24,000 nucleotides of DNA from Candidatus Stoquefichus massiliensis AP9 (GCF_000455285.1 NZ_HG005296.1:31549-55548), one strand, 5' to 3'; positions 3,325 through 18,271 are shown, numbered from the stretch's first letter. Program-made: numbers and translations. The notes: generated from the sequence alone by a model not told the origin.

Positions 3325-3333
3325 GACTCTTTT
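3301..3333. terminator. Bidirectional hairpin between convergent CYTH and YitT genes
   Basis: Perfect 13-bp stem AAAAGAGTCTTAG (3301..3313) / CTAAGACTCTTTT (3321..3333), 7-nt loop, with A/T runs on both sides. Confidence 0.6.
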
Positions 3334-4204
3334 AATCGATAGGTGCCTGATAAAACCCACCAAAGAAATTTTCAGTTTTCACAACATTAATAATAGCTTT
3401 TGGATCTACATCACGAATTAAATCAACAATATCCTGAACTTCATAACTAGAAACAACAGTATGTAATAAATTCATTGGTTTTTGACTATATCCACCCATT
3501 GCATCTACACAAGAAATACCATGACGATAATTCGCAACATATGCATCTATAACACGTTTAGAATGAGTTGTTGTGATTTGTAAGGTCATACGTTCATAAC
3601 GATGATAGAATGAATCTATTGTTCTCGTTGAGATGAATTGAAATAAGATAGAATACCCTGCATGTTCCCAGCCAAACATATACCCAAATATCACTAAAAT
3701 CAAAGTATTAAATACAAAGACATATTCCCAAATAGAACGTCCTTTACGATTCGATACGTATAAAGCTATAAAATCCGTTCCACCAGTCGAAGCATTTCCT
3801 TTTAATGCTAGCACAGTTAATAAACCATATGCAAAACCACCAAAAGCGATATTTAATAAAATATCATCAAATAAAGGTGGAAAATCAATAAATCGTAAAA
3901 ACAAACTGGCTAAAAAGACTTCTAATAATGAAAAGAACGTAAACTTTGGACTAATACTCTTATAGCATAATATAGCAACTGGAATATTCAAAAGAATCAT
4001 TCCAAGTGATACAGAAAATTGAAATCCTGCTAATGAGGTGATTTTATTAATCAAAATAGCAACCCCAGTAAAACCACTAGATAATAAATCAGCTGGTTCA
4101 ATAAATACCTTAATCACATAAGCCTGCATAAAAGCAGCAATAATCACACAGATGAGTGTAATCAATAATCTTATCTGTTTATTTTTTCTTAGTCTTCTCA
4201 TCAT
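3332..4204 (-). CDS. YitT-family membrane protein (YitT membrane domain + DUF2179-like C-terminal domain)
   Basis: 290 aa. Has an N-terminal basic stretch, then several TM helices and a soluble C-terminal domain (ITTTHSKRVIDAY...VVKTENFFGGFY). ATGATGA overlap with the cutC stop suggests translational coupling. Confidence 0.75.
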   Translation of the reverse strand: MMRRLRKNKQIRLLITLICVIIAAFMQAYVIKVFIEPADLLSSGFTGVAILINKITSLAGFQFSVSLGMILLNIPVAILCYKSISPKFTFFSLLEVFLASLFLRFIDFPPLFDDILLNIAFGGFAYGLLTVLALKGNASTGGTDFIALYVSNRKGRSIWEYVFVFNTLILVIFGYMFGWEHAGYSILFQFISTRTIDSFYHRYERMTLQITTTHSKRVIDAYVANYRHGISCVDAMGGYSQKPMNLLHTVVSSYEVQDIVDLIRDVDPKAIINVVKTENFFGGFYQAPID

Positions 4205-4941
4205 AAACTTTCTATTAACTTCCTTACTAAATCAGCACTTACAATTTCATAATCCATAATATGAGGCTTATCAACATATGCAAAACTCACATGATGTAAA
4301 GCTGTTGTAGGATCCATCATCCAATCTTTACATGAACTATGAACCTGTGATATTCCTGTTTTTTCCATTATTTCTTTTGCATTACTTGCATTTATACCAC
4401 TACCTGCAAGAATTTCTATACGATTTCCATAATCTTTTTGTAATTGTTTAATGATTTCAATACCATCGGTTGCTTTTGTTTCAAGTCCACTTGTTAAAAC
4501 ACGATCAACACCTAATTCTATCAATGTTTCAATGGCTTCAATCGGATCTTCAACACAGTCAAAAGCACGATGAAAAACAACTTCACCTTGAAAATCTTTA
4601 ATAATAGAAATCATCTGCCCTGTTCGTTTTCGATCAATATGTCCTGATTCATCTAAACATCCAAAAGCAATTCCATCAGCACCATGTTCTAACAACATCA
4701 CAGCATCATGTTTCATAACTCTAAACTCATCATCTGTATAATGAAAACCCGCCCCACGTGGGCGTACCATTGCAATAACTTTTAAATCAGTATCTTTCTT
4801 TGTTAAAACAAGTGTTGCTAAACTTGGTGTTAAACCTCCTAAATGCAATGCACTGTTCAACTCAATACGTGACGCTCCACCACGATAAGCATTTAAAGCA
4901 TCTTCATAACTACCACAACAAATTTCTACAGTTTTTTCCAT
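4201..4941 (-). CDS. cutC: CutC-family TIM-barrel protein (annotated copper homeostasis protein CutC)
   Basis: 246 aa. The N-terminus EICCGSYEDALNAYRGGASRIELNSAL is the characteristic CutC start. RBS AGGAGG lies 8 nt upstream and overlaps the M20 stop codon. Confidence 0.85.
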   Translation of the reverse strand: MEKTVEICCGSYEDALNAYRGGASRIELNSALHLGGLTPSLATLVLTKKDTDLKVIAMVRPRGAGFHYTDDEFRVMKHDAVMLLEHGADGIAFGCLDESGHIDRKRTGQMISIIKDFQGEVVFHRAFDCVEDPIEAIETLIELGVDRVLTSGLETKATDGIEIIKQLQKDYGNRIEILAGSGINASNAKEIMEKTGISQVHSSCKDWMMDPTTALHHVSFAYVDKPHIMDYEIVSADLVRKLIESL

Positions 4942-4953
4942 AAACTCAACCTC

Positions 4954-6060
4954 CTATAAATTTGCAAGATAATAGATTCCAAGTGCATATATTTTGGCAT
5001 TTGCTACAATATCATCAATCTTCATCCATTCATTAGGTTGATGACCAATGCCTTTTTGTCCTGGAAAACTTGGTCCAAATGGTACAATATTGGGCATAAG
5101 TTTTGCATAAGTTCCACCTGTTGTCGTCACTGGAGTTCCATCCATATTAGTAATTGTTTCATAAGCAATTTGCAAAGCCTTTACCATTGGACAATCTTTT
5201 TCAAATCGAACAGGGAGATAATGATGAACACATTCAACCTTGAAGTCTCCTGCTTTCTCTTGAATAGTCTTCAGCATATCATCAAGACAGGCACTTGCTG
5301 GATAAGAGAAAGTTACTGAGAATATGAGACGATGATGATTATGCTTCAATTCATAATTACGCATCTCATTCATACCAAATTCTTCATCATAGTCATCAAC
5401 ACCTAGTCTTTCACCATTAGGCTTGGCATTCATAAAATAAGTATTCACAAATGTAAAGAAATCATTAATATTTTTTTCATCAGTTGAAATCTCTATAACT
5501 GCTCTACCGCGTTCTCCATAAACAACAGGATACTTACAATCAGGTGTCCACCCCATAATTGGTGGCTTTTGATGTTTTAAATAATATTCTAAATCTTCAA
5601 ATCCAGATTCTTCATCACAACCAAAAATAATGCGTACTGGTCTCTTTAACTCTATCTGTAATAATTTTAACGCATATAAAGCATATAAACAACTCAATAG
5701 TGGTCCCTTATTATCTAAAATACCTCGAGAATAGATAAACCCATCTTTTTCATAGCCACTAAACGGTGGTTGTTTCCATCCTTCGCCAACTGGTACAACA
5801 TCTAAATGACCAATAATCCCAATATAATCATCACCTTCACCATATTGAGCCCAACCAATATAATGATCTAAATTTTCTGTATGAAAGCCTAATTCCTGTG
5901 CAAGTTTCAATACTTCATCAAGAGTTCGTGCTATATCTTTACCAAAAGGTGCATGTTTTTCTTTTTCACCTTTCACACTAGGCATACGAACAATTTTCTT
6001 AATATCTTCAATCATTTGAATAGATAATTGATCTATTTGATTTGTTATTAATGTTTCCAT
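4954..6060 (-). CDS. M20-family metallopeptidase (dipeptidase / amidohydrolase type), cytoplasmic
   Basis: 368 aa. Metal ligand motifs are present: GHLDVVP, GILDNKGP, CDEESG and a C-terminal GHQPNE. No signal peptide. The start lies 1 nt after the upstream gene's stop. Confidence 0.8.
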   Translation of the reverse strand: METLITNQIDQLSIQMIEDIKKIVRMPSVKGEKEKHAPFGKDIARTLDEVLKLAQELGFHTENLDHYIGWAQYGEGDDYIGIIGHLDVVPVGEGWKQPPFSGYEKDGFIYSRGILDNKGPLLSCLYALYALKLLQIELKRPVRIIFGCDEESGFEDLEYYLKHQKPPIMGWTPDCKYPVVYGERGRAVIEISTDEKNINDFFTFVNTYFMNAKPNGERLGVDDYDEEFGMNEMRNYELKHNHHRLIFSVTFSYPASACLDDMLKTIQEKAGDFKVECVHHYLPVRFEKDCPMVKALQIAYETITNMDGTPVTTTGGTYAKLMPNIVPFGPSFPGQKGIGHQPNEWMKIDDIVANAKIYALGIYYLANL

Positions 6061-6061
6061 A

Positions 6062-7018
6062 TTACTTCTCTTCCAATGGTGCCATTCTCGTTTTCATATA
6101 CTGATCAAGCCATTCCTGGCTCGCAACCTCATGCACACATTTCCCATCGATCATTTTTGTTAAGTAAACAGTTGGCTCTTGTAAAGCCGTTGCCACTGCA
6201 AAAGAGAAACCTTCAATATTTGTCGCAACACCCCATTCACCTTTATGATTCATTGCTATTAAAGAAAGATCTCCAGCTTTTCCTCGTCTTTGTTTTAATT
6301 CTCTATCCAAATCACAGACAGCTTTTTCACAAGCCGCTTGTGGGTGCATTCCCTCTTTCATCAATCTAACAATTTCATAAGAAATACAACCTTTCATTAA
6401 ATCTTCACCTAACCCTGTTGCACTTGCTCCACCAACTTGAGAATCAACATAGAATCCAGAACCTACAATTGGTGAGTCTCCAACACGCCCTTTTTTCTTC
6501 ATAAATAAACCACTCGTTGATGTTGCTGAAGTCATTTTTCCAAATTCATCTAAACATACCATACCGACTGTATCATGACCAGAATAGGGTTTGATTTCCT
6601 GTTCACGGACTTCTTTCATACGATTTTTAAAGTGAATTTTTGCACGTTCTGTAAGCATGTTCTTTCTTTCAAAGCCTTCTTTATGAGCAAACTTCTCTGC
6701 CCCTTCAGCAACTAACATACTATTTACTTTTTCTTGAGATAAACGTCTTGCAATGGAAATCGGATTAGCAAAATCTTTAATCGCTGCTACAGCACCCATA
6801 TCAAAAGTATCTCCATCCATAAAAGCCGCATCTAATTCAACTTCCATTTCTTCATTAGGAAGTCCACCATAACCTACTGATTTATAATACTCAAAATCTT
6901 CTACTGCCTTAATAGCTGTTTCAATAGCATCACCAGCATCTCCATGATTTGCTAAAATTTCACTTGCTTCACTAATTCCCTCAGCTGCCATACGCCATGT
7001 CGCAATAATACCCCACAT
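6062..7018 (-). CDS. Glycosylasparaginase-like Ntn hydrolase (Asparaginase_2 family; N4-(beta-N-acetylglucosaminyl)-L-asparaginase / isoaspartyl peptidase type)
   Basis: Autoprocessing/nucleophile motif GHDTVGMV followed by GRVGDSPIVGSGFY and GASATGLGEDLM. From memory this closely parallels eukaryotic and bacterial aspartylglucosaminidases (HDTIGM...GRVGDSPIPGAG). I set the start at ATG 7018 (MWGIIATW), preceded by AGGAGGT at 7026..7032. The listed TTG at 7039 lies inside that RBS. No signal peptide. Confidence 0.8.
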   Translation of the reverse strand: MWGIIATWRMAAEGISEASEILANHGDAGDAIETAIKAVEDFEYYKSVGYGGLPNEEMEVELDAAFMDGDTFDMGAVAAIKDFANPISIARRLSQEKVNSMLVAEGAEKFAHKEGFERKNMLTERAKIHFKNRMKEVREQEIKPYSGHDTVGMVCLDEFGKMTSATSTSGLFMKKKGRVGDSPIVGSGFYVDSQVGGASATGLGEDLMKGCISYEIVRLMKEGMHPQAACEKAVCDLDRELKQRRGKAGDLSLIAMNHKGEWGVATNIEGFSFAVATALQEPTVYLTKMIDGKCVHEVASQEWLDQYMKTRMAPLEEK

Positions 7019-7062
7019 ACATTTTACCTCCTTTAACAAACAAAACTGAGAATATCCCAGTT

Positions 7063-7386
7063 TTATTTTTTTGCTTTCTTCATTTCTTTAATTGCTGTTT
7101 TTAAAACCTTTTCACCATCCATTAATCCATAATCAGCAGAATCAATCACCGCAATTGGTTTTCCATTTTGACCATATCGATCAATTGTATCCTGTAATAA
7201 ATATTTTACTTGAGGTCCAAGTAAAATGCAATCAGGATTTTTAGATTCAATAATTTCTCCTAATGTTCCAATTGGAAACGCCTTGACTTCAAATGGTAAA
7301 TGATGTGCATTTGCTACATCCTGCATATTTTGGGCTAATAAACTTGTTGACATTCCATTACTACAAAATAAATAAATCTTTTTCAT
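7063..7386 (-). CDS. PTS EIIB component, lactose/cellobiose/chitobiose family (copy 1)
   Basis: 107 aa. MKKIYLFCSNGMSTSLL contains the phosphorylatable Cys, followed by the LLGPQVKY motif. Confidence 0.9.
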   Translation of the reverse strand: MKKIYLFCSNGMSTSLLAQNMQDVANAHHLPFEVKAFPIGTLGEIIESKNPDCILLGPQVKYLLQDTIDRYGQNGKPIAVIDSADYGLMDGEKVLKTAIKEMKKAKK

Positions 7387-7389
7387 TCT

Positions 7390-7728
7390 TTATTCCTCCT
7401 CTAATATTTTTGTTTCAAGACCAAAAATTCTTTGATAACAGGCATTCATCTCTTCAGCAAGAACTTTAAACTGTTCAACAGACATCACTTGATCTTGTGC
7501 ATGAATAAGTAAAAGATGATAATCATTTAAAATCCAGTTTACTTCTTCTTTGGTCAATTGATTTTGAATATCATAAACTTGAGCAAACTTATCATCGCCT
7601 TTACAAATAGACTGATTTGCTTTTTCAAAATCATTTTTTCTTGCTTCTTGAATAGATTTCATATAGTAAGCTTTTGCTTCACCAACTATTGAAATAATCA
7701 AGAAACATTTCTTAATTGATTCGTCCAT
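7390..7728 (-). CDS. PTS EIIA component, lactose/cellobiose/chitobiose family
   Basis: Small helical protein with an IHAQDQ motif carrying the conserved His. I prefer ATG 7728 (RBS AAGGGGTG 8 nt upstream) over the GTG at 7737 in the ORF track. Confidence 0.85.
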   Translation of the reverse strand: MDESIKKCFLIISIVGEAKAYYMKSIQEARKNDFEKANQSICKGDDKFAQVYDIQNQLTKEEVNWILNDYHLLLIHAQDQVMSVEQFKVLAEEMNACYQRIFGLETKILEEE

Positions 7729-7796
7729 CTTCTTCACCCCTTATCAATCACAATACTATTGTACTCTTCTTTTCTCTTTTATTCTTTTAACTGTTT

Positions 7797-7813
7797 TTCC
7801 TAGCACTTAGGAA
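7797..7813. promoter_or_regulatory. Operator palindrome S1 (TTCCTAGCACTTAGGAA) serving the EIIA operon promoter
   Basis: 17-bp inverted repeat with T/A-run flanks (7794..7816). It lies 33 nt from a minus-strand -10 TACAAT at 7758..7763. Confidence 0.6.
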
Positions 7814-7830
7814 AAATATACTTATAAGAT

Positions 7831-7847
7831 TTCCTAATAACTAGGAA
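7831..7847. promoter_or_regulatory. Operator palindrome S2 (TTCCTAATAACTAGGAA) serving the M3 peptidase promoter
   Basis: 17-bp inverted repeat, 32 nt from a plus-strand -10 TATACT at 7880..7885. Its centre is 34 bp from the centre of S1. Confidence 0.6.
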
Positions 7848-7913
7848 AAACATTTCAAATATCTTTTTGTTATTTCCTTTATACTTATCAATAGAACAAA
7901 GGAGGTATAACAT

Positions 7914-9638
7914 ATGAATTATCAATGGTCATTAGATGCATTATATAAAGGATATCAAGATCCTCAATATCAAAAAGATTTCTCTCTATATATAAAGTTA
8001 TCAACACAATTCTCTCAATATATAAAAACAATGAATGATAACGAATCATCCATAAAAGAAGGATTAAAACTATTAGAAAAAGAATATGATTATAGTTATC
8101 GTTTAAAGATGTATTCTTTACTTATTCAAACAATGGATTCTACAAATAAAGAGGCAATAAGAGAACTTCAAAAAATATCAGATTTACAATCTTCATATTC
8201 TTCTTTTATTATCAAAATCGAGAATCATTTAGGATCACTCAATATACAATCAGCAGATCCATTCCTTTTAGAATATCAATATTATTTAAAAGGATTGAAA
8301 GATAAACAAAAACATACTCTCAACTCTTTACAAGAAGATATTCTTTCTGCCTTGTATCCCTCAACATTAAAATCAATGAGTGATATGTATTATCATTTAA
8401 CATCATGTGCACATCTTGAATGTTTAGGTCAAGATATGACACTCACGCAAATCAAAAACTTATGCCATGATCCATCACAAAATATCAGAAAAGAAGCATT
8501 CTTAAAAGAAATGGAGTGTTATCAGCAAATTGCGGAACCATTAAGTTTTGCTATGAACAATATCAAAAAGCAACAGCTTTATATATCTCGTTTAAGAGGA
8601 TATCAGGATCCTTTAGATAAGATGTTAAAAGAGAGTGGTATGAAAAAAGAAACATTAGATGCTATGATATCTTCAGTTGAAGACTATCTACCAATATTTC
8701 AAGAATACCTATATAACAAAGCCAAAAAATTGGGACATGAAAATGGAATGCCTTGGTATGATATTTATGCAACGATTGATGAATGTCAATATCATTTTAC
8801 CATTGATGAATGTGAAGATATCATTCTTCATTGTTTTAAAGACATTGATAATTCTTTATACCAAATGACAAAAAGAGCTTTTGATGAGAAATGGATTGAT
8901 TATCCAAGTCGCAAAGGCAAACAAGGTGGTGCTTTTTGTGAAAATCTTGCTTGGATTCAAGAAAGTCGTTTAATGACAAACTACAATTCAACACTGAGTG
9001 ATGTTGTGACTGTTGCCCACGAATTAGGACATGCCTATCATGGTCATATGATTGAACATCATCGTCCTTTAAACCGTGAGTATTGTATGCCTTTAGCTGA
9101 AACTGCCTCAATGTTTAATGAAAATATTATTTATCATTCTTTTTATCAAAAAGCTGATCAAAAGAATCAAATGTTAATTTTAGATATTCAATTATCAGCA
9201 TTATGTCAAGTTGTTTGTGATATTTATGCAAGATATACTTTTGAAAAATCAGTTTTTGAAAATATTGAAAAAAATTTCTTATTTGCTGAAGATTTAAATA
9301 AACTCATGATTGATGCATTAAAAAAAGCATTTGGAAAGGGAATGGATGCAAAGTGGTTACATCCATATCGTTGGATAACAAAAGTTCATTACTATATTCC
9401 AGATATAGCATATTATAACTTTCCTTATACATTTGGCGCTTTATTTGCTAGAGGTTTATATGCTATATATCAAAATGATCATACATTCTTTAAAGATTAT
9501 CAAGAACTACTCAAAGCTTCTACAACACATACTGTTGAAGAAACTGCTATGATTGCTGGTATTGATTTAACAAAAAAAGATTTCTGGATTCAATCTTTAG
9601 AATCCATTTATCAGCAAATGTTACAATTCATGAAATGA
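7914..9638 (+). CDS. pepF: M3B-family oligoendopeptidase (PepF-like), cytoplasmic
   Basis: 574 aa. Zinc motif HELGH (VAHELGHAYHG) with a downstream Glu (LAETASMFNE). N-terminal W.LD.LY pattern as in PepF. RBS AAAGGAGG at 7898..7905. Confidence 0.85.
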   Translation: MNYQWSLDALYKGYQDPQYQKDFSLYIKLSTQFSQYIKTMNDNESSIKEGLKLLEKEYDYSYRLKMYSLLIQTMDSTNKEAIRELQKISDLQSSYSSFIIKIENHLGSLNIQSADPFLLEYQYYLKGLKDKQKHTLNSLQEDILSALYPSTLKSMSDMYYHLTSCAHLECLGQDMTLTQIKNLCHDPSQNIRKEAFLKEMECYQQIAEPLSFAMNNIKKQQLYISRLRGYQDPLDKMLKESGMKKETLDAMISSVEDYLPIFQEYLYNKAKKLGHENGMPWYDIYATIDECQYHFTIDECEDIILHCFKDIDNSLYQMTKRAFDEKWIDYPSRKGKQGGAFCENLAWIQESRLMTNYNSTLSDVVTVAHELGHAYHGHMIEHHRPLNREYCMPLAETASMFNENIIYHSFYQKADQKNQMLILDIQLSALCQVVCDIYARYTFEKSVFENIEKNFLFAEDLNKLMIDALKKAFGKGMDAKWLHPYRWITKVHYYIPDIAYYNFPYTFGALFARGLYAIYQNDHTFFKDYQELLKASTTHTVEETAMIAGIDLTKKDFWIQSLESIYQQMLQFMK

Positions 9639-9743
9639 TTAGAATCATACGAACATGATATTCAAATGAATAAACTCGCTGTTATCATCAACTTATAATG
9701 ATAACTAATATGATAGATGAGAACCTCCCTTTCTCATACAAAC

Positions 9744-9769
9744 AAAAACTGTATTTTTACAGTTTTTTT
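9744..9769 (+). terminator. Intrinsic terminator after the M3 peptidase gene
   Basis: Stem AAAAACTGTA (9744..9753) / TACAGTTTTT (9758..9767), 4-nt loop, T-run to 9769. Confidence 0.65.
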
Positions 9770-9814
9770 AATATTGTTTTTATGTGGTTGTCTTTTATTA
9801 TATTGAATATATAG

Positions 9815-9838
9815 AAAAAAGCACATCAAAGTGCTTTA
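9815..9838 (-). terminator. Probable intrinsic terminator after the M42 gene pair
   Basis: Minus strand reads AAAGCAC-TTTGAT-GTGCTTT followed by TTT (plus-strand arms 9818..9824 and 9831..9837). It overlaps the TAA stop at 9836..9838. Confidence 0.45.
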
Positions 9839-10927
9839 TCCGATTCCATGATTGAATTGTTTATATTTATTCCAGTCTAATCTTCTACATAACTCAGCAA
9901 TAGCTTCAACAGTTTGTACATAATCTTTACGATGAATGATTAAGCGATGAGAATGCATATAACGTGTAGGAATACTTAAGGTCATACAAATAACCCCATC
10001 ATATGCTTTATGAATATTATCTGCATCTGTTCCTCCTACTGTCATCATATCATAATTGATATCTAAATGAAGATCTTTACAAATAGACTCCATCTCTTTT
10101 AATAGCGCTTTATGTCCAATGATTCCAGCATCCATAATACTTAAGACAACTCCCTTACCAAGTTTTATTTGTCCTTGATCTACAGGTGTATCCATAGCTG
10201 TTGTCACGTCTAAAGCAATAGCAACATCAGGATGAATCATATTGGCAGCAGTTCTTGCTCCTCTTAATCCAACTTCTTCCTGAACAGTTCCGACAGCATA
10301 GACATCAGCTTCTATATCATCATGGGATATACGTTCTAAAACCTCAATAGCTGCTGCTGCACATAAACGATCATCCCAAGCTTTACCCATTAAATAATTA
10401 GGATTATTCATGATTTCAAACTGAGTATCTGGTGTAATCATATCACCAATTTGAATTCCTAAATCCAATACTTCTTGTCTGTTATCAACACCTAAGTCTA
10501 AGAATAAATCTATTGGTTTGATAACTTTTTCTTTGACTTCTTTTTTGAGTCCATGTGGTGCACTACTACCAATCACACCATGATATCTTTTTCCACTTGC
10601 TGTTGTAATATAGAATGTTTGTGAAGGTAGAACATGTCCCCACCAACCACCAACAGGCAAAAGTCTAATAAATCCATTTTCATCTATTTCTCTCACCATG
10701 AAACCAACTTCATCCATATGACCTGCAATCATAATCTTAGGTCCATGATGACCTTTTTTAACACCAATAATAGATCCTAAGTTATCATATGTGATTTCAT
10801 CACATATAGGTTTCATGTATTTTTTCATAATTCTACTGACTTCTTTTTCACATCCTGATATTCCATGAGCCTCACTCATTTCTTTAATCATATCAAGATT
10901 CATTTTTCCATAGGGTTCCTTTAACAT
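9836..10927 (-). CDS. M42-family aminopeptidase (FrvX/YsdC/PepA-like), paralog 1
   Basis: 363 aa. All M42 metal/catalytic motifs are present: GHMDEVGF, AWDDR, VQEEVGLRGA, ALDVT and a C-terminal YMHSH. RBS AAGAGG 7 nt upstream of ATG 10927. Confidence 0.85.
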   Translation of the reverse strand: MLKEPYGKMNLDMIKEMSEAHGISGCEKEVSRIMKKYMKPICDEITYDNLGSIIGVKKGHHGPKIMIAGHMDEVGFMVREIDENGFIRLLPVGGWWGHVLPSQTFYITTASGKRYHGVIGSSAPHGLKKEVKEKVIKPIDLFLDLGVDNRQEVLDLGIQIGDMITPDTQFEIMNNPNYLMGKAWDDRLCAAAAIEVLERISHDDIEADVYAVGTVQEEVGLRGARTAANMIHPDVAIALDVTTAMDTPVDQGQIKLGKGVVLSIMDAGIIGHKALLKEMESICKDLHLDINYDMMTVGGTDADNIHKAYDGVICMTLSIPTRYMHSHRLIIHRKDYVQTVEAIAELCRRLDWNKYKQFNHGIG

Positions 10928-10938
10928 ATCATAGCCTC

Positions 10939-11991
10939 TTATCTATTTTCTTCTTTAAATGCTTGAATTTGCTTTTCATCAAGTGAAGTCAATACTTGAA
11001 TGATCGCTTTTTGAGCACTATTATAATCTCTTAAATCAATCATAGAATTTCCAGTATGAACACCTCTAGCACAAATACATGTACTCAAAGTTGGACATCC
11101 TGCAAATAATTTATGAATCCATGCTGAATCAGTTTGTCCCATATTATAGAAATATTGATAGTCTATATCATTTTTCTGACAAATTTCAACAAGATAATTT
11201 AATAATGCACGATTAGGCATCATCCCTTTATCATAATAACGAATTAAAATTCCCTTTCCTAATTGACCAATTTCATTGTCTTTTCCTTGATAGTCATCAG
11301 CAAATGAACAATCCATCACAATCCCCATATCAGGATGAATAAGACCAGTTGCTGTCGTTGCTCCACGCATTCCTACTTCTTCCTGTACAGTTGCCCCAAT
11401 ATACAAATCATAATCCAATTCAATATCTTTTAATGCCTTTAATACTTCAATTGCCATGATACAGCCATAACGATTGTCCCATGCTTTAGATACAATACGA
11501 TTTTCATTGAAAATTGTAAAAGAACCATCAAGAACAGCACTATCTCCTACATGTATTCCCATGTTTTCAACTTCCTCTTGTCCTGATGCGCCAATATCTA
11601 TCAACATCTTCTTTTCATCACATGCCTCAATATCCTTTAATGAACAGCCAATAATACCAATAACTTCATTTCCATCCTGTTTCAATACACGTACACGACT
11701 AGATAATAAAACCTGATTATCTATTCCACCAATTTTGATAAACTTCAATAAACCATTTTTGGTGATTTCTGTAATCATTAAACCGACTTCATCCATATGA
11801 CCACATACCATAACTCTTTGTGCATTTTCTTTTTTACTCTTTTTCACTGCAAAAAGACTTCCTAAGTGATCATAAACAATTTCATCACAATAAGGCTCTA
11901 AATAAGATTTCAATAATAAAGATACTCGTCTTTCATCACCTGCAATACCTACAACTTGTGTCATTTCTTCCATTAATTTTAAACTATCCAT
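10939..11991 (-). CDS. M42-family aminopeptidase, paralog 2
   Basis: Motifs GHMDEVGL, AWDNR, VQEEVGMRGA, VMDCS and GVHTGNS. The ORF track starts at 12009. I prefer ATG 11991 (MDSLKLMEEM, RBS AAAGGCAGG 6 nt upstream) because the predicted -10 (12015..12020) puts the transcript start at about 12008. Confidence 0.8.
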   Translation of the reverse strand: MDSLKLMEEMTQVVGIAGDERRVSLLLKSYLEPYCDEIVYDHLGSLFAVKKSKKENAQRVMVCGHMDEVGLMITEITKNGLLKFIKIGGIDNQVLLSSRVRVLKQDGNEVIGIIGCSLKDIEACDEKKMLIDIGASGQEEVENMGIHVGDSAVLDGSFTIFNENRIVSKAWDNRYGCIMAIEVLKALKDIELDYDLYIGATVQEEVGMRGATTATGLIHPDMGIVMDCSFADDYQGKDNEIGQLGKGILIRYYDKGMMPNRALLNYLVEICQKNDIDYQYFYNMGQTDSAWIHKLFAGCPTLSTCICARGVHTGNSMIDLRDYNSAQKAIIQVLTSLDEKQIQAFKEENR

Positions 11992-12053
11992 AACATACCT
12001 GCCTTTCATACTCTATTATAAATCCAAATAGCTACTCACATATGTAAGTTTCT

Positions 12054-12069
12054 TTCCTATTAAACGGAA
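12054..12069. promoter_or_regulatory. Degenerate operator S3 (TTCCTATTAAACGGAA) upstream of the M42 pair
   Basis: The TTCC-N8-GGAA core is kept, with 3 mismatches to the other sites. It lies exactly 33 nt from a minus-strand TATAAT at 12015..12020. Confidence 0.4.
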
Positions 12070-12072
12070 AAA

Positions 12073-12101
12073 AAGAACATGATTTTAATAACCATGTTCT
12101 T
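12073..12101 (-). terminator. Intrinsic terminator after the GrdB-like gene
   Basis: Minus strand reads AAGAACATG-(11-nt loop containing the TAA stop)-CATGTTCTT followed by TTTTT. Plus-strand arms are 12073..12081 and 12093..12101. Confidence 0.6.
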
Positions 12102-12606
12102 TTACAAACGCACTCACATCTTCTTTATTCACTAATCGTTTTGCGAGAGTGACCATATTCGATAGAGCCTGATTTAAACCAGTTCCACCCTTTTTAGGCA
12201 TTTTTAAAATATATACCTTATCTTTATAATCAGCAATAGCTGTTTCACATTCTTGTGACATGATGGCAAAGGCTGGAATATTTGTATGTTCCTGAATTGT
12301 TAATGCTGTCTTAGCTGCCATGATACCATATTCTCCATAATTGAAACATGGTCCACAAATGACAACATCCGGTTGAATCTTTTTCGCCATGGCTGCAAAC
12401 TTTTTAGAAACAGTTTCCGGATCATTCATAAATGTTCCATTCCCACAGTATAAAGTTCCAATAATTTTCCCACCAGCATCTTTCACCTGTTTTTCAAACA
12501 TATTACAAGATCCCATTGCTATCATTTTACCACCTAATGCTAAATCTGCACTCTCTTTTCCGCCTAAACCAGCTTGAGTTTGATCAAATATCATCAATAC
12601 CTTCAT
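12085..12606 (-). CDS. Stand-alone GrdB-N-terminal-domain protein (glycine/sarcosine/betaine reductase component B family, no selenocysteine-containing half)
   Basis: 173 aa. MKVLMIFDQTQAGLGGKESAD, then GTLYCGNGTF, then QPDVVICGPCFNYGEYG. From memory this follows the N-terminal third of GrdB/PrdB-type proteins (VHY.NQF.GGIGGEEKAD ... PD.fIAGPAFNAGRYG). RBS AAGGAG 7 nt upstream. The start lies 23 nt inside the EIIB copy 2 gene. Confidence 0.6.
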   Translation of the reverse strand: MKVLMIFDQTQAGLGGKESADLALGGKMIAMGSCNMFEKQVKDAGGKIIGTLYCGNGTFMNDPETVSKKFAAMAKKIQPDVVICGPCFNYGEYGIMAAKTALTIQEHTNIPAFAIMSQECETAIADYKDKVYILKMPKKGGTGLNQALSNMVTLAKRLVNKEDVSAFVKEHGY

Positions 12607-12937
12607 CTTTCTTCTCCTTGTTTTCTTTCATTGCTAAAAGAGCTTGCTTCAAGACTTTATCACTATTTAACATTCCATAATCCTCTTGTGAAATCATCAT
12701 AATAGGAATCTTTAAATCTTTAAATCTCTGTCTTGTCTCTTCTAACAAATATTTGACTTGAGGCCCTAGAAGAATAGCATCAGGCAATGATTGCTTTTCT
12801 ATCACACTTGGCAGTTTTCCATGAGGATAAGCGACAATCTCAATGGGTAATTGATGCCTATTGGCACATTCCTGCATCATACTTGCCAGCATACTTGTTG
12901 ACATTCCCTGACTACATAATAAATATATCTTCTTCAT
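12584..12937 (-). CDS. PTS EIIB component, lactose/cellobiose/chitobiose family (copy 2)
   Basis: 117 aa. MKKIYLLCSQGMSTSML with the active Cys, plus LLGPQVKY. About half the residues match copy 1 by eye. It has an extra acidic C-terminal tail (KEKKDEGIDDI). Confidence 0.9.
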   Translation of the reverse strand: MKKIYLLCSQGMSTSMLASMMQECANRHQLPIEIVAYPHGKLPSVIEKQSLPDAILLGPQVKYLLEETRQRFKDLKIPIMMISQEDYGMLNSDKVLKQALLAMKENKEKKDEGIDDI

Positions 12938-12993
12938 CGTTCCTTATTCTCCTTTATTATAAATCAATTTCTTTTTTTATATTTCAAATTCTT

Positions 12994-13009
12994 TTCCTAA
13001 CACTAGGAA
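12994..13009. promoter_or_regulatory. Operator palindrome S4 (TTCCTAACACTAGGAA) upstream of EIIB copy 2
   Basis: 16-bp perfect inverted repeat, 32 nt from a minus-strand TATAAT at 12956..12961. The right half contains the TAG stop (13003..13005) of the S66 peptidase gene. Confidence 0.55.
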
Positions 13010-13965
13010 AGAATTCTGAGTTGTTTGTTTTCCATATCAACCTGAACTCTTCCACCAATTGGTAAAGTCATCATTGGTGTTGTATGACCAAAATCCATAT
13101 TATACATAATTGGTATATGTTTTAAAACTTGTTTAGACTCTAAAATTTTTAATAATTTATCATCTGTAATGAAACTTCCTTTTTGCATTCTCCCTATTAA
13201 TAATGCTTTCACTTTATCAAAGCCTATACATTGTGTTAAAGATTCTAAGTTTCTATCAAATTCAAATAAACTATATTCTTTTGCAACTTCACAATCCTCT
13301 TCAATTAAAATAATTTTATTTTCTAATGATGGCATATATTCTGTTCCTTGTAAAAGCTGAAATGTATTTAAATTACCTCCAATAAGAATCCCTTCAACAT
13401 TTTTTCCATGATAGACTTTCCAGCCATTATTTTTATAAAAATGGCGATGATTTTGATCCAAATACCACGCTTCATCTGACCATTCTTTTGAAGCTTTAAG
13501 TGTACAGTCATTTTCCATCAGAACCTTTTGAAATGATTCTAAAGAATATTCAAACCCCTTTTGCATAGCAAAACTTGAATAATGCAAACCTAAATATGTT
13601 ATCATTCCTGTTTTTGTATATATTGCATTGAGGAGAGCAGTTATATCTGAATATCCACAAAGAATTGTAGGATTTTCTTTGATAAGATGATAATCAAGAT
13701 AAGGTAGAATTTGATTCACTTGGAAACCACCTGTTGCAGTTATTATCACTTTTACATGAGAATCTAAAAATGCATTTTCTAAATCTTCTTTTCTATTTTG
13801 AATACTGGTTGTTAGAAATTCATTGCTTTCATAAAAATGTTTTCCATAATCCACAAAAAAACCTAAAGATTCTAACTTTTCTCTTGCTAGAATCATTGAA
13901 TCGCCTAATTGTACAGCACTCATTGATGGCGCAATCACTCTTATAAGATCACCTTTTTTAAGCAT
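13003..13965 (-). CDS. S66-family LD-carboxypeptidase (LdcA/MccF-like), cytoplasmic
   Basis: Nucleophile elbow GYSDITAL, and a C-terminal FGHTTP motif with the catalytic His. I set the start at ATG 13965 (MLKKGDLIRVIAPS), with RBS AAAAGGAG 7 nt upstream. The listed start 14025 adds 20 non-conserved residues. Confidence 0.8.
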   Translation of the reverse strand: MLKKGDLIRVIAPSMSAVQLGDSMILAREKLESLGFFVDYGKHFYESNEFLTTSIQNRKEDLENAFLDSHVKVIITATGGFQVNQILPYLDYHLIKENPTILCGYSDITALLNAIYTKTGMITYLGLHYSSFAMQKGFEYSLESFQKVLMENDCTLKASKEWSDEAWYLDQNHRHFYKNNGWKVYHGKNVEGILIGGNLNTFQLLQGTEYMPSLENKIILIEEDCEVAKEYSLFEFDRNLESLTQCIGFDKVKALLIGRMQKGSFITDDKLLKILESKQVLKHIPIMYNMDFGHTTPMMTLPIGGRVQVDMENKQLRILS

Positions 13966-14031
13966 AAGAAATCTCCTTTTCGACAGTTCTCTTGATACAT
14001 AAGAAAAATATTTATTAATTTTCATGTCATC

Positions 14032-14040
14032 ATTATATCA
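14032..14040 (-). promoter_or_regulatory. Extended -10 promoter element (TGATATAAT) for the S66 peptidase gene
   Basis: The minus strand reads TGATATAAT. No TTCCTA/TAGGAA palindrome is found 32-33 nt upstream (14071 onward), unlike all neighbouring promoters. Confidence 0.45.
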
Positions 14041-14193
14041 CAATTAGCAACCTCAAGAAACGCCAAAAATTATCATTTTACAATAATTAATTCATGAAAT
14101 ATATCATACTGACTCTTAACTTAAGTCAATCATAAATCCATTGATATGTTTACAGTTCCACCTCAATAAAACAGTATTTATGATAAAAAGAAA

Positions 14194-14218
14194 ATAGAAA
14201 AACGGACAAAATGTCCGT
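14194..14218 (-). terminator. Intrinsic terminator after EIIC
   Basis: Minus strand reads ACGGACA-TTT-TGTCCGT followed by TTTTCTATTTT (plus-strand arms 14202..14208 and 14212..14218), immediately after the EIIC stop at 14221. Confidence 0.65.
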
Positions 14219-14220
14219 CA

Positions 14221-15585
14221 TTATAAATCAGAAAGATCTAAATCATCAAATGAAATATCTTCATCATCCTCATCTTCTGCTTCTAATTCCTCTTTTAAAT
14301 ATTGTTTATCTAACGCCTTAATAAATGGGAAATAAACAAGACAGCCTAAGACTAATAAGAAGATTTGCCAGATTGCAGCAATTGGCGAACCTGTTGATAA
14401 CCATCCAGAGAAACCAATTGGCGTTGTCCATGGTAGATTCACTCCTGTTGTTCTTGGAATGATTTCCCAAAGTGTTGCTAAGTAAGATAAAACTAAGTTC
14501 ATCATTGGTACTAAGATAAATGGTATAGCAATAATTGGATTTAAAACAATTGGTAAACCAAAGATAATAGGTTCATTGATACCAAATATTCCTGGAACAA
14601 TACTTAATTTTCCTAATTGTTTAATACGCTGAGATTTACAAAATCCTAACATCACAATAACCAAAGATAGAGTAGAACCTCCACCTCCAAAATTACAGAA
14701 GAAATTAGAGAATGGATTTGTAAAGATATGTGGTAATGCTTTTCCTGCTTCAAATGCAACTTGTTGTTCAATTGTTAAGACATTTCCAATAAAATATACA
14801 GAGTTTGCTACTGCAGGTCCATTAATACCAAAAAACCATAAGAATGTACATGCAAATGAATAAATAGCATTTGCAGCTAATGTATCTCCTAATCCTTTAA
14901 GTGGTATTTGTAAGATTTCCAATACAAATTGATGTGCTGTTCCAAACGAAGTCAAACCAAATAAAATACGTACTAAGAAGAATATTGTCATAACGAATGC
15001 ACTTGGTATTAATGCAGCAAATGAATCACATACTGCTGGAGGTACCCCTTTAGGCATCTTAATCGTCCATCCCTTTTTATAAACCCATGTAAAGATTAAA
15101 ACAGAAATAAGAGCACACACAAGTCCCATAAAAATTCCATCAGCACCAATATATCTAAATGCTAATCCATCAATTCCGTTTTCAGCAGCATCACTACCTT
15201 TTAGCAAGCTGACACCTGGAATTGATCCAATTCTTGTGTTTGTCAGAATAACAAAAGCAACTAACGAAACAACTGCTCCTTGAATTTTATCTCCTTTTAA
15301 TTCTCTTGCAAATGCATAACCAGTCCCAACGCAAGTCAGTAGACCAGTCATATTAAATGTTGCTCTTGAAACATTTGTAAACCAAGTTCCCCAGTTTTCT
15401 CCAAATACACTTGTCATCATATCTTCCCAGCCTGGAATTGGGAAGTTAGCAATTAACAAGAAGATTGATCCAACAATCAATAATGGAGTCGTGATTAAGA
15501 AACCATCACGAATAGCGATTAACACTCTATTTTTACCAAGTTTATCAGCAATTGGCATTAATACGCTTTCTAATTTGTTAAACAT
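14221..15585 (-). CDS. PTS EIIC permease, lactose/cellobiose/chitobiose family, with strongly acidic C-terminal tail
   Basis: 454-aa polytopic membrane protein. The N-terminus MFNKLESVLMPIADKLGKNRVLIAIRDGF is typical of ChbC/CelB/LicC-type EIIC. RBS AAAGGAGG at 15593..15600. Tail is EELEAEDEDDEDISFDDLDLSDL. Confidence 0.9.
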   Translation of the reverse strand: MFNKLESVLMPIADKLGKNRVLIAIRDGFLITTPLLIVGSIFLLIANFPIPGWEDMMTSVFGENWGTWFTNVSRATFNMTGLLTCVGTGYAFARELKGDKIQGAVVSLVAFVILTNTRIGSIPGVSLLKGSDAAENGIDGLAFRYIGADGIFMGLVCALISVLIFTWVYKKGWTIKMPKGVPPAVCDSFAALIPSAFVMTIFFLVRILFGLTSFGTAHQFVLEILQIPLKGLGDTLAANAIYSFACTFLWFFGINGPAVANSVYFIGNVLTIEQQVAFEAGKALPHIFTNPFSNFFCNFGGGGSTLSLVIVMLGFCKSQRIKQLGKLSIVPGIFGINEPIIFGLPIVLNPIIAIPFILVPMMNLVLSYLATLWEIIPRTTGVNLPWTTPIGFSGWLSTGSPIAAIWQIFLLVLGCLVYFPFIKALDKQYLKEELEAEDEDDEDISFDDLDLSDL

Positions 15586-15653
15586 ATTTTTTCCTCCTTT
15601 TCAAATCTGTCTACATTATAACAATCAACAATATCTTATTTTTCTAAAAAGTT

Positions 15654-15670
15654 TTCCTAACATATAGGAA
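15654..15670. promoter_or_regulatory. Operator palindrome S5 (TTCCTAACATATAGGAA) upstream of EIIC
   Basis: 17-bp inverted repeat, 33 nt from a minus-strand extended -10 TGTTATAAT (15615..15623). It sits 4 nt downstream of the RDD gene stop. Confidence 0.6.
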
Positions 15671-15674
15671 ATAT

Positions 15675-16277
15675 TTAATCTTCTCCTGTTATAACTAATT
15701 TTGTTTTTGCAATATAATCATGAAACATCTTTCTTTGTGGTGATGCACATGCCCACAACATAGAAACCGCTGTGATAATACCAAATAGATAAACATAAAT
15801 ATGATTCAAATCTTTACCAACCAAAATATTAATGATCTGATGAAAATAACTAGAACTTGCTGCAATATATCCTTCAACAATCATAACGCCAATGACTTCA
15901 CGTTTCAGTAAAGTTTTAAGATCAACATCATTGTCATCATTTTTTACAACTTTAATATTCATAATCTTTTTAGCAAAAGTTTGTCCTGGATAGATCTTGA
16001 GTGGAACAATGATAAAATAAGCAAGATAAACAGTAATCGCAAGTATTCCTGCTAAAATACTATAAGGCATAGGTAATAAAGTAATATTTTGAGTAATTTC
16101 TAAATCTTGAAAAAAGATTGAATAAATGAAAACAACAGGAATTCCTGCCAGCATACTTGCTGCGTACCAGTCAATCACATAAGCAAATAAGCGTTTAAAG
16201 TTATTTACTGTTGTCGGATTTGATTCTATGATTCTTGTATTATTTAATGCTGCATAATTAATTGTAGGTTTTTTCAT
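15675..16277 (-). CDS. RDD-family-like integral membrane protein
   Basis: About 200 aa from ATG 16277 (MKKPTINY), with RBS AAGGAGA 6 nt upstream. FKRLFAYVIDWY... followed by 3-4 TM helices fits the RDD architecture. The start overlaps the regulator's last 20 nt. The listed 16361 start runs deep into the regulator gene. Confidence 0.5.
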   Translation of the reverse strand: MKKPTINYAALNNTRIIESNPTTVNNFKRLFAYVIDWYAASMLAGIPVVFIYSIFFQDLEITQNITLLPMPYSILAGILAITVYLAYFIIVPLKIYPGQTFAKKIMNIKVVKNDDNDVDLKTLLKREVIGVMIVEGYIAASSSYFHQIINILVGKDLNHIYVYLFGIITAVSMLWACASPQRKMFHDYIAKTKLVITGED

Positions 16278-18192
16278 GCGTTTTCTCCTTTGTGATTTTA
16301 CAAATAAATTCATTATAATTTTTTGATTCCAATAAATCTGAAAAATGTCCAGCTTCACCAATAGCTTGACTCAACCAATCAAAGAACATTTTTAAAATAT
16401 CATGATCTTCTTCATTGATTGCAAGCAATATCACTAATTTCACTTTAAATGAACCCCAATCAATAGGATTTTTAAGGATTGCAACAGATAATGTTGGTGT
16501 ATTCACATAGTCTCCAAATGAGTGTGGTGTTGCAAATGAATAAGCAAATGATGTTGGCGACATATCCTCTCTTTTGAGAACACCTTTTTTAAAAAACTTA
16601 TTGACGACTCCACCTTCATAAAGCTGATCACATAAATATTCAATAACATCATGTGAAGTTTTTTTATCTAAATCCATATAAAAATATTTAGGATCTATTA
16701 ATTGTGTAATCTTCTGATTAAAAACAATTTGAAATCTTTTCTTTTCTAATTTTGATAAAGCCTGAAAAATCATTGATTCATCTTCATTATTAATAAACAT
16801 ACTAACTTGAATTGTTAAGATATCTAATTCATGAGAAAGAGGTGTTGTTGTGATTAAAAGATCGGGATTTAAAGCTAAGACTTTGGCTTCTTCAAATAAT
16901 GACAAAGTTTCTACTATTTCAAGTCTTTCTCCAAATGTTGATTCAATCTTTTTTTGACCTAAAGATGAAAAGTTTTGATCATAAGGAATAATCATGACTG
17001 CCTTAAATTTACTATTTCTATTTAATCTTTCATAAGCTGCTCCAAAATGTAATGCAATAAAACCCATTTCTGATTCATTAATTTGTATATTTAATCTTTC
17101 TTCTAAAGCTTTTCCTACTGAGACACCCATCTCAAAGACTAATGGATAATTTCTTTTAATATCATGAATAAAAAGATTATCAGCATTAACATGATGTTTA
17201 TATCTATCTATAAGTCCTTGTAAATGCATCTTTAACCCTGCCATAAAATCATCATCTTCATGAAATTGTACATGTAATTTCTTTTCTATTGGTGTGACGA
17301 CTTCTTCTAGTAATTGATCCATATCAATATGAGTCTCTTCTATTTCTAAATAATCAGGTTGATATTGTCCACTCTTATTAGAAAATAGCAAAGCTAATAA
17401 ACATGTTTCATCTTCATGAATTTCTATAGGAATATCTTGTTTCAATCTTTCAAAATATTCTTTAGCAATTTTGTATTCAATACTCTTTAATAATTTTTCA
17501 TTTTTTCTTTCTGTTGTATAAAAACGACAATTTAGCATTCTTTCAATACTAATACCAATATGTAAAATGAGCATAGGAAACATTGTATCTTTAATGATAT
17601 ATTGATTTTCTTTTAATACATCAACAAGTATATCTGTCGCATTGATTAAATCAAAATCTTTATAAAACATTGCTAATTTATTTAAATTCAAGAAATTACC
17701 TTGTGTTTCATTAGATAATAACTCTTTATATAATTTTCTTTTTTCTATTTCATCACCTTTTAAATAGATATAATTCTTAGAACGAACAAGTTTAAGATGA
17801 GGATATCTTTCTAATGTCTTACGGACTTTCTTTATATCATTTTCAATCGAATAACCACTTACAAAGATATCTTCTTGTAAAAATGTTAAATTCACACCAT
17901 CTTCATGAATTAACAATTGTTGGATTAAATATGTACATCTTTGAGCTGGTGTTTGAGGAATATCAACTTGAGCATCCACATAGATTTGATTATATTTATC
18001 TAAATCAAGAAAATAACCTGTTCGAATATTAGACAAAATCAACTCCTCTTTAAAATGTTTATTAATGGCATCAATATCTGAACGTATAGTCCTATCTGAA
18101 ACACTCATAAGTCTTGCAAGTTCCTTACCTGTAATCCATTCTTTATTCTCATAAAAGATAGATATAATGCGTTCCTGTCTTTTGTTGAGCAT
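16258..18192 (-). CDS. PRD-domain PTS regulator, LicR/MtlR/ManR type (HTH + Mga-like HTH + 2 PRD + EIIB-like + EIIA-like domains)
   Basis: 644 aa. N-terminal winged HTH (ITGKELARLMSVSDRTIRSDIDAINKHF), central PRD-like helical repeats, and a C-terminal EIIA(Mtl/Fru)-like region (SFATPHSFGDYV...VILLAINEED). Confidence 0.85.
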   Translation of the reverse strand: MLNKRQERIISIFYENKEWITGKELARLMSVSDRTIRSDIDAINKHFKEELILSNIRTGYFLDLDKYNQIYVDAQVDIPQTPAQRCTYLIQQLLIHEDGVNLTFLQEDIFVSGYSIENDIKKVRKTLERYPHLKLVRSKNYIYLKGDEIEKRKLYKELLSNETQGNFLNLNKLAMFYKDFDLINATDILVDVLKENQYIIKDTMFPMLILHIGISIERMLNCRFYTTERKNEKLLKSIEYKIAKEYFERLKQDIPIEIHEDETCLLALLFSNKSGQYQPDYLEIEETHIDMDQLLEEVVTPIEKKLHVQFHEDDDFMAGLKMHLQGLIDRYKHHVNADNLFIHDIKRNYPLVFEMGVSVGKALEERLNIQINESEMGFIALHFGAAYERLNRNSKFKAVMIIPYDQNFSSLGQKKIESTFGERLEIVETLSLFEEAKVLALNPDLLITTTPLSHELDILTIQVSMFINNEDESMIFQALSKLEKKRFQIVFNQKITQLIDPKYFYMDLDKKTSHDVIEYLCDQLYEGGVVNKFFKKGVLKREDMSPTSFAYSFATPHSFGDYVNTPTLSVAILKNPIDWGSFKVKLVILLAINEEDHDILKMFFDWLSQAIGEAGHFSDLLESKNYNEFICKITKEKTHEKTYN

Positions 18193-18254
18193 ATATATAC
18201 CTCACTTTCCTACTCATTATAACAATTTTCTTTATTATTCTCTGTTATCTTTAT

Positions 18255-18271
18255 TTCCTAACTATTAGGAA
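18255..18271. promoter_or_regulatory. Operator palindrome S6 (TTCCTAACTATTAGGAA) upstream of the PRD regulator gene
   Basis: 17-bp inverted repeat, 33 nt from a minus-strand extended -10 TGTTATAAT (18216..18224). Geometry is identical to the EIIC promoter. Confidence 0.6.

Follow-up and report, generated by a model that had tools for sequence, protein, structure and literature searches.

A PTS, glycosylasparaginase and peptidase regulon of Candidatus Stoquefichus massiliensis as a probable, expanded variant of the ega-type GlcNAc-asparagine system

A 15-gene cluster of Candidatus Stoquefichus massiliensis AP9, lying at 3332–18271 of a 24,000-nt stretch of DNA (here termed the window), joins a complete sugar phosphotransferase system (PTS) to an N-terminal nucleophile (Ntn) hydrolase, several peptidases and a LicR/MtlR-type activator, and probably encodes the catabolism of N-acetylglucosaminyl-asparagine (GlcNAc-Asn) in the manner of the ega locus of Enterococcus faecalis. 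We reach this assignment from protein families, synteny and a shared DNA motif, taken together with the ega literature. GlcNAc-Asn is the stub left on host and dietary N-glycoproteins by the combined action of endo-β-N-acetylglucosaminidase and proteases. A sequence-only reading of the window had proposed uptake of GlcNAc-Asn by the PTS and its subsequent cleavage by the Ntn hydrolase; this proposal is supported because the hydrolase falls in the glycosylasparaginase clade, and further by the conserved linkage of PTS, Ntn and M20 dipeptidase genes and by the ega precedent. The mechanism has already been published for Enterococcus, so the window does not embody a new principle: it holds an enlarged form of the ega-type system under a different regulator.

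Pfam and NCBIfam profile scans of 25 window proteins confirmed the positions and families that had been ascribed to the 15 genes (Table 1), save for the label of the S66 peptidase; all lie on the minus strand except the M3B oligoendopeptidase gene. The best solved relative of the Ntn hydrolase is the glycosylasparaginase of Elizabethkingia (8e-60, versus 1e-33 to 1e-34 for isoaspartyl peptidase/asparaginase structures). An alignment shows the TW Trp to be retained, along with the HDT site of autoprocessing and of the nucleophile, the Asp-binding segment RVGDSP and ATG-GE, with the Thr-Gly of the oxyanion region aligned to that of the Elizabethkingia enzyme; the two differ at WRM (WNF in Elizabethkingia) and in the MKKK that precedes RVGD (YKMH). 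The gene in fact begins with the ATG at 7018. The resulting 318-aa form is on record, being 100% identical to a Candidatus Stoquefichus massiliensis protein that NCBI names N(4)-(beta-N-acetylglucosaminyl)-L-asparaginase, whereas the 325-aa open reading frame (ORF) has no exact match. An exact-sequence look-up places the 318-aa form solely on a Logan contig of 1.8 kb, too short to show its gene context. Membership of the glycosylasparaginase clade implies that this is not a plain plant-type asparaginase, in agreement with the glycosylasparaginase-like character first attributed to it.

The adjoining M20 dipeptidase has 368 residues, about 80–100 fewer than the PepV and Sapep profiles and about 70–100 fewer than its Enterococcus counterparts (431–465 aa); it matches the 447–466-residue PepV and Sapep profiles in two stretches. 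Related M20 proteins form a cluster with a median of 374 residues, so the short protein is a conserved form and not a truncation. The transport components are of lactose/cellobiose (Lac/Cel) type: EIIC and EIIB correspond to PF02378 and PF02302, EIIC, EIIB and EIIA all match cellobiose and chitobiose models, and the two EIIB copies are 54% identical. The hydrolases of the cluster are cytoplasmic; a crude hydropathy check found an N-terminal hydrophobic segment on none of them, bearing out the earlier statement that they lack signal peptides. Scans of the window, flanks included, found no GH1, GH4 or GH170 phospho-glycosidase and neither MurQ nor MupG, and no MFS, GH29 or ROK domain occurs among the 25 proteins.

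Comparison with other genomes used as its marker the gene for a protein resembling the N-terminal domain of glycine reductase selenoprotein B (GrdB-like). The marker was confirmed at 154 places in a species-representative genome set, and the best 80 loci, each from a different species and fetched by GrdB-like protein alignment with up to 10 kb on either side, were scored for gene content by tblastn and by unbiased ORF clustering. In the 48 loci with full flanks, EIIC is present in 47, the M20 dipeptidase in 44, the Ntn hydrolase and EIIB in 41 each and EIIA in 35; RDD (27), the M42 pair (26), CutC (25) and YitT (17) follow. At least one metallopeptidase (M20, M42 pair, M3B, M19 or M81) is found in all 48. 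Over the 80 loci, EIIC occurs in 74–77, the Ntn hydrolase in 60–64, M20 in 63 and EIIB in about 60. M20 adjoins the Ntn gene in about 60 of them, and CutC follows M20 in 38–42. The RDD gene (42 loci) stands directly after LicR wherever LicR is present, and YitT (28–30 loci) lies either at the operon end or divergent from LicR with the palindrome described below between them. The gene-neighbourhood census thus recovers the PTS–Ntn–M20–peptidase linkage across many Bacillota families.

Several layouts recur. Lachnospiraceae, Thomasclavelia and several Clostridium have a compact order, LicR-RDD-IIA-IIB-IIC-GRDB-NTN-M20-CutC-YitT with or without GH170. Erysipelotrichaceae have a split order like that of the window, with YitT divergent, then LicR-RDD-IIC-GRDB-M42-M42 (sometimes M81), after which come M19 and M3B in the opposite orientation and finally IIA-IIB-NTN-M20. 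The layouts of Clostridium sensu stricto come with a sigma-54 activator, and Enterococcus and Lactobacillaceae have GntR-M20-NTN-(IIB)-IIC-GRDB-M42-M42, the GntR regulator being confined to Enterococcus and other Lactobacillales loci. Some loci hold further genes. Seven of Erysipelotrichaceae (L003, L005, L006, L011, L012, L015 and L016) show an M19 dipeptidase in all seven and an MlrC-like M81 protein in four, so that the peptidase complement is variable yet always present. In six Clostridium loci (L018, L019, L025, L032, L033 and L047) an AspA-type lyase (Lyase_1 plus FumaraseC_C) adjoins the cluster, consistent with aspartate being a product; L018, L032, L033 and L047 have an MFS transporter gene nearby as well. 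Systems of this kind thus occur widely among Bacillota of the gut (Erysipelotrichales, Lachnospiraceae, Clostridium, Peptostreptococcaceae, Enterococcus and Lactobacillaceae), and in gene content the clostridial and Erysipelotrichales forms exceed those of Enterococcus, with a LicR-type activator and its operator, GrdB-like, CutC, RDD and YitT genes and up to five extra peptidases.

A second line of evidence is regulatory. Five copies of the palindrome TTCCTA-N4-5-TAGGAA lie in the window, where shuffles lead one to expect 0.01, and all five are intergenic, each 5' of a cluster gene. Among the related loci it is found in 34 of 37 with a LicR-type gene and 4 of 44 without (Fisher p 6e-15, a value that overstates independence, the species being related), where it stands 5' of IIA, IIC, IIB, M42, M3B, GH170 and LicR/YitT genes. 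M3B is present in seven Erysipelotrichaceae loci, with a palindrome pair in the shared divergent region. We predict that this is a newly defined operator-like motif, that its binder is the LicR-type regulator and that the regulator gene is autoregulated from the copy 5' of it. The regulator conforms to the LicR/MtlR layout, with a helix-turn-helix and Mga-like region, two PRDs and a C-terminal EIIA(Mtl)-like domain; Pfam detected no EIIB(Gat)-like domain between PRD2 and EIIA. Promoter-like hexamers were not enriched over shuffles (85 found, 96 expected), and we therefore defined transcription units by the palindrome, by terminator hairpins and by comparison with the closest relative (L001). 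These support at least four units under one predicted regulator, with hairpins after EIIC and after the M42 unit. Judged by the common operator-like motif and by the conserved gene linkage, the cluster forms one real regulon, and synteny in dozens of species together with the common palindrome indicates that the gene clustering is not due to chance.

The pathway that we favour would run as follows. The Lac/Cel EIIC, with EIIA and EIIB, would import GlcNAc-Asn, and possibly di- or tripeptides bearing it, and the sugar would be phosphorylated on uptake, presumably at O6. Any residues flanking the Asn would be removed in the cytoplasm by the M42 pair, M20 and M3B, a trimming made necessary because glycosylasparaginases require free α-amino and α-carboxyl groups on the Asn (Becerra et al., mBio 2020, PMC6960285). 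The Ntn hydrolase would then cleave the β-aspartyl-glycosylamine amide, releasing aspartate and 6-phospho-GlcNAc-1-amine, and the latter would decay or be converted to GlcNAc-6-phosphate and ammonium. NagA and NagB, encoded elsewhere, would act on the GlcNAc-6-phosphate. In E. faecalis the glyco-amino acid is reportedly phosphorylated on uptake, and the glycosylasparaginase EgaG is said to yield aspartate and 6-phospho-glucosaminylamine. Expression of at least four units and of the regulator gene itself would be driven by the LicR-type PRD activator acting on TTCCTA-N4-5-TAGGAA.

A number of observations weigh against this pathway. Neither nagA nor nagB lies in the window. In five full-flank loci (L002, L008, L016, L019 and L025) EIIC-GrdB-like-M42-M42 is present and no Ntn ORF lies within 10 kb of it, so the M42 module may serve another substrate, although L019 gives a 65% tblastn match to the Ntn hydrolase. 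A minimal Enterococcus locus (L081) holds only GntR-M20 and NTN-IIB-IIC; its EIIC is 47% identical to that of the window, from which it appears that several EIIC subfamilies are tied to the same Ntn hydrolase. In E. faecalis strain OG1RF, in which ega expression was measured, the GrdB-related gene is described as a pseudogene, so the GrdB-like protein is probably not essential for simple use of GlcNAc-Asn. Growth of Lacticaseibacillus casei on the glyco-amino acid does not depend on pepV (PMC6960285). Finally, the proposed orthology to EgaC and EgaG is judged through other enterococci: E. faecalis proteins are not among the best 120 matches of a search seeded with an Enterococcus Ntn hydrolase, all of which came from other enterococci and Vagococcus. 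Identities to counterparts in the genus Enterococcus span 37–66% (58–60% for the Ntn hydrolase), and one such locus (L039) gives EIIC 65%, Ntn 60%, GrdB-like 50%, M42a 60%, M42b 44% and M20 37%.

The foremost alternative, which extends the GlcNAc-Asn pathway and does not contradict it, takes short N-glycopeptides X-Asn(GlcNAc)-X as the physiological substrates and makes the M42 pair, M20 and M3B obligatory before the Ntn hydrolase; we regard it as possible, but hold it only tentatively. It draws on the metallopeptidases present in every full-flank locus, on peptidase genes standing behind the same palindrome, on the restriction of glycosylasparaginases to Asn with free α groups, and on the resemblance of M20 to dipeptidases acting on bulky adducts (Cys-Gly-3M3SH dipeptidase model, 5.9e-49, well below its cut-off). 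We know of no PTS shown to carry a peptide, which counts against it, as do the dispensability of L. casei pepV and the minimal Enterococcus locus, where M20 is the only peptidase. A trimming role of the same kind was proposed for PepV by Becerra et al. (PMC6960285). The alternative has a bolder form, in which this would be the first PTS peptide pathway: EIIC would import and phosphorylate short Asn(GlcNAc) glycopeptides, a hetero-oligomeric M42 TET complex with M20 and M3B would trim them to 6-phospho-GlcNAc-Asn, and the GrdB-like protein, CutC or both would be new enzymes or chaperones for the 6-phospho-glycosylamine or for transport. We think this form unlikely as a whole; if true, it could also account for the M42 genes of E. 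coli PTS operons.

An equally improbable alternative divides the cluster into two systems under one regulator, Ntn-M20-CutC-YitT acting on GlcNAc-Asn and EIIC-GrdB-like-M42-M42 acting on another sugar–amino acid conjugate that M42 would cleave. The five loci without a nearby Ntn ORF support such a division, and it accords with the sequence relationships: the window EIIC is 65–90% identical to M42-linked EIICs and 47–49% to those of compact Ntn operons, while the window Ntn hydrolase is closest (84–86%) to that of compact operons without M42. Two models derived from E. coli, PRK09961 and PRK09864, match the M42 proteins at scores under their cut-offs, recalling the M42 genes of the frv, sgc and fry operons. 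The window nevertheless has a single EIIC, which both modules would have to use, and one palindrome is common to all of its units; in Enterococcus and Lactobacillaceae, moreover, a single GntR gene precedes NTN, IIC, GRDB and both M42 genes, all grouped in one orientation, with EIICs 64–66% identical to that of the window. In the five genomes an Ntn gene may also lie elsewhere, and L019 has the 65% tblastn match noted above.

Very little probability attaches, in our judgement, to an ordinary chitobiose or β-glucoside PTS whose phospho-glycosidase gene lies elsewhere, the Ntn hydrolase and peptidase genes being unrelated neighbours. The matches of EIIC, EIIB and EIIA to cellobiose and chitobiose models would suit it, as would phospho-glycosidase genes in some relatives: GH170 (MupG family) in 17 of the 80 loci, often behind the same palindrome, and GH4 in 6. 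A cellobiose-type PTS with GH170 constitutes the diacetylchitobiose system of L. paracasei (PMC12791066), so the GH170-bearing relatives may also take chitobiosyl-Asn or chitobiose. Set against this are the PTS-Ntn-M20 synteny across many Bacillota families, the palindrome common to the units, the E. faecalis precedent, which points to GlcNAc-Asn, and the 32 of 48 full-flank loci with neither GH170 nor GH4. The earlier remark that the cluster lacks a phospho-glycosidase consequently stands for the window and for these 32 loci, but not for the relatives that carry GH170 or GH4.

The S66 peptidase had been taken for an LD-carboxypeptidase, a label that did not survive. In a PDB sequence search it is nearest the MccF-like Lmo1638/BA_5613 (3e-92), LdcA being remote (1e-13 to 1e-15); tblastn recovered no copy from any of the 80 related loci; and a promoter-like sequence of its own, of the extended -10 type (TGTGATATAAT), stands near 14040. 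MccF-type enzymes are immunity or detoxifying hydrolases for aspartyl-adenylate antibiotics. In the closest relative the EIIC gene, terminator, operator and EIIB gene follow within 135 bp, compared with an interval of 1283 bp in the window, where an insertion of about 1.15 kb carrying S66 sits between the EIIC terminator and the operator. S66 is thus probably a lineage-specific insertion and not a functional member of the regulon, which weakens the muropeptide alternative. Salvage of muropeptide or peptidoglycan fragments, with the PTS taking up a GlcNAc/MurNAc fragment and S66 and M20 trimming the stem peptide, can appeal to the presence of the S66 gene and to MupG-family (GH170) genes in some relatives, but is the least credible alternative of all given the MccF-like and separately promoted S66, absent from all 80 related loci, the lack of MurQ in the window, the glycosylasparaginase signature kept by the Ntn hydrolase and the use of GH170 in chitobiose catabolism as well (PMC12791066).

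No partner is tied to EIIC more tightly than the GrdB-like gene: in nearly all of the 80 loci it stands immediately 3' of an EIIC gene and in the same orientation, and in 36 of the 80 two neighbouring M42 genes come 3' of it. An AlphaFold2 model of the protein (predicted local distance difference test score, pLDDT, 95.6) has a flavodoxin-like α/β fold, with no PDB match above a TM-score of 0.5, and a literature search on GrdB-related proteins, CutC with asparaginase, and glycosylamine products found nothing relevant. The gene is duplicated in some genomes: L051 has two tandem IIC-GRDB pairs, and three Clostridium loci (L032, L033 and L047) have a second GRDB directly before NTN-M20, beside a divergent sigma-54 activator gene. 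These extra copies tie the gene to both EIIC and the Ntn hydrolase. A 457-aa ORF from an ENA metagenome (P0146), in which the C-terminal part of a GrdB-like protein is fused to a full Ntn hydrolase, was rejected as a Rosetta-stone link and not counted, because its linker resembles a translated intergenic spacer; it probably arose through loss of a stop codon or through faulty gene calling. Two Ntn homologues (P0122 and P0148) have internal tandem duplications. What retains interest beyond the ega precedent is the conserved peptidase complement, the pairing of EIIC with the GrdB-like gene, CutC and the operator; the loci offer candidates for glycopeptide entry through a PTS, for the fate of the 6-phospho-glycosylamine and for the role of M42 peptidases in PTS operons.

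Table 1 Genes, palindromes and terminator-like hairpins of the cluster (window coordinates)
Feature	Position	Strand	Basis and remarks
YitT-family membrane protein with DUF2179	3332–4204	-	Pfam
CutC-family TIM-barrel protein	4201–4941	-	Pfam
M20 dipeptidase, Sapep/PepV subfamily	4954–6060	-	TIGR01887, 350 bits (cut-off 208)
Asparaginase_2 Ntn hydrolase, glycosylasparaginase type, 318 aa	6062–7018	-	Pfam; start MWGIIATW
PTS EIIB, Lac/Cel type, copy 1	7063–7386	-	Pfam
PTS EIIA, Lac/Cel type	7390–7737	-	Pfam
Two palindromes	7797–7813 and 7831–7847	.	176-bp divergent region EIIA/M3B
M3B oligoendopeptidase, HELGH motif	7914–9638	+	Pfam; TIGR02290, 465 bits, below cut-off (562); divergent from EIIA gene
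Terminator-like hairpin	9818–9837	-	End of M42 unit, convergent with M3B
M42 (TET-type) aminopeptidase, paralogue a	9836–10927	-	Pfam, NCBIfam
M42 (TET-type) aminopeptidase, paralogue b	10939–12009	-	Pfam, NCBIfam
GrdB-related protein without selenocysteine, 173 aa	12085–12606	-	NF041545 (GrdB_like_no_Se), 246 bits (cut-off 175)
PTS EIIB, Lac/Cel type, copy 2	12584–12937	-	Pfam
Palindrome TTCCTAACACTAGGAA	12994–13009	.	5' of EIIB-GrdB-like-M42-M42 unit; overlaps S66 stop codon
S66 peptidase, MccF-like	13003–14025	-	Pfam; PDB sequence search
Terminator-like hairpin	14201–14219	-	Directly 3' of EIIC gene; equivalent hairpin in L001
PTS EIIC, lactose/cellobiose/chitobiose family	14221–15585	-	Pfam; TIGR00410, 398 bits (cut-off 236)
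Palindrome TTCCTAACATATAGGAA	15654–15670	.	5' of EIIC gene; same position occupied in 13 related loci
RDD-family membrane protein	15675–16277	-	Pfam
LicR/MtlR-type PRD activator	16258–18192	-	HTH_11/Mga, two PRD, EIIA-2 [EIIA(Mtl)] domains (Pfam)
Palindrome TTCCTAACTATTAGGAA	18255–18271	.	5' of regulator gene

The RDD protein has its likely start at the ATG at 16277, giving 200 residues, as in the L001 homologue, with three transmembrane-like segments and a 20-nt overlap with the 3' end of the regulator gene. The ten genes flanking the cluster are housekeeping genes and include those for FtsW/RodA, an RluD-type protein, NAD kinase, CYTH, ArsC/Spx, TrpS, an alpha/beta hydrolase, UppP and RidA. 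Among these, the ArsC/Spx-family protein (18671–19132, minus strand) bears an unusual Cys-rich C-terminal extension (…ECDNSDFCPQF…ECPEKCD), and a T-box leader (Rfam RF00230, 110 bits; 19234–19435, plus strand) lies directly 5' of the TrpS gene (19469–20458); the leader is ordinary and has no relation to the cluster. An acidic ORF of 188 residues at 21380–21946 (minus strand) has no Pfam match.

Four known systems bear comparison with the window. The E. coli frv, sgc and fry PTS operons place M42 or M24 peptidase genes beside a PTS of fructose/mannitol type; to our knowledge they contain no Ntn hydrolase and have no established substrate. In the chb cluster of L. paracasei BL23, a cellobiose-type PTS and the GH170 enzyme ChbE serve N,N'-diacetylchitobiose (Garcia-Telles et al. 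2026, PMC12791066). Window and chb share Lac/Cel EIIA, EIIB and EIIC, a GlcNAc β-linked substrate derived from N-glycans or chitin (proposed, for the window) and a small accessory gene directly after EIIC, which is ChbD in chb and GrdB-like here. They part in their hydrolases: chb has ChbE and neither an Ntn hydrolase nor peptidases, whereas the window has no GH170, and 17 related loci, unlike either, combine GH170 with the Ntn-M20 set.

Closer in substrate is the alf-2 cluster of L. casei/paracasei BL23, which handles fucosyl-α-1,6-GlcNAc-Asn with AlfH (MFS), AlfC, AsdA, AlfR2, PepV, AsnA2 and SugK, asnA2 and pepV being genetically linked in lactobacilli (Becerra et al., PMC6960285); the account of alf-2 in the sequence-only reading, as a glycosylasparaginase with a PepV-type M20 peptidase and an MFS transporter, was accurate. 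Both alf-2 and the window pair a glycosylasparaginase with a cytoplasmic M20 peptidase, and the pathway proposed here would share with alf-2 a glyco-amino acid from the N-glycan core as substrate and aspartate as product. The MFS permease AlfH, the GH29 enzyme AlfC, the ROK kinase SugK, AsdA and the GntR regulator have no equivalent in the window, where the PTS takes the place of permease and kinase.

The nearest system is ega of E. faecalis (OG1RF_10933-10939; Combret et al., Res Microbiol 2024;175:104169, PMID 37977353). As described in later work on E. faecalis, it comprises a GntR regulator (OG1RF_10933), a dipeptidase (OG1RF_10934), the glycosylasparaginase EgaG (OG1RF_10935), lactose/cellobiose PTS EIIB and EIIC and a putative-oxidoreductase pseudogene cited to the GrdB literature, while CelA1 serves as EIIA when N(4)-(beta-N-acetyl-D-glucosaminyl)-L-asparagine is transported. 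The locus is reported to take up GlcNAc-Asn via the Lac/Cel PTS and to depend on the glycosylasparaginase, and the title of the E. faecalis study ties use of this compound to infection. On that description, the Lac/Cel EIIB and EIIC of ega have counterparts in the window, as do its glycosylasparaginase-type Ntn hydrolase, its M20 dipeptidase and the GrdB-related gene immediately behind EIIC; neither locus holds a phospho-glycosidase. They differ in that the window has a LicR-type PRD regulator with TTCCTA-N4-5-TAGGAA in place of a GntR-type one, its own EIIA where E. faecalis borrows CelA1, two EIIB genes, and an intact GrdB-like gene. The window further adds to the ega set the M42 pair, M3B, CutC, YitT, RDD and the inserted MccF-like S66.

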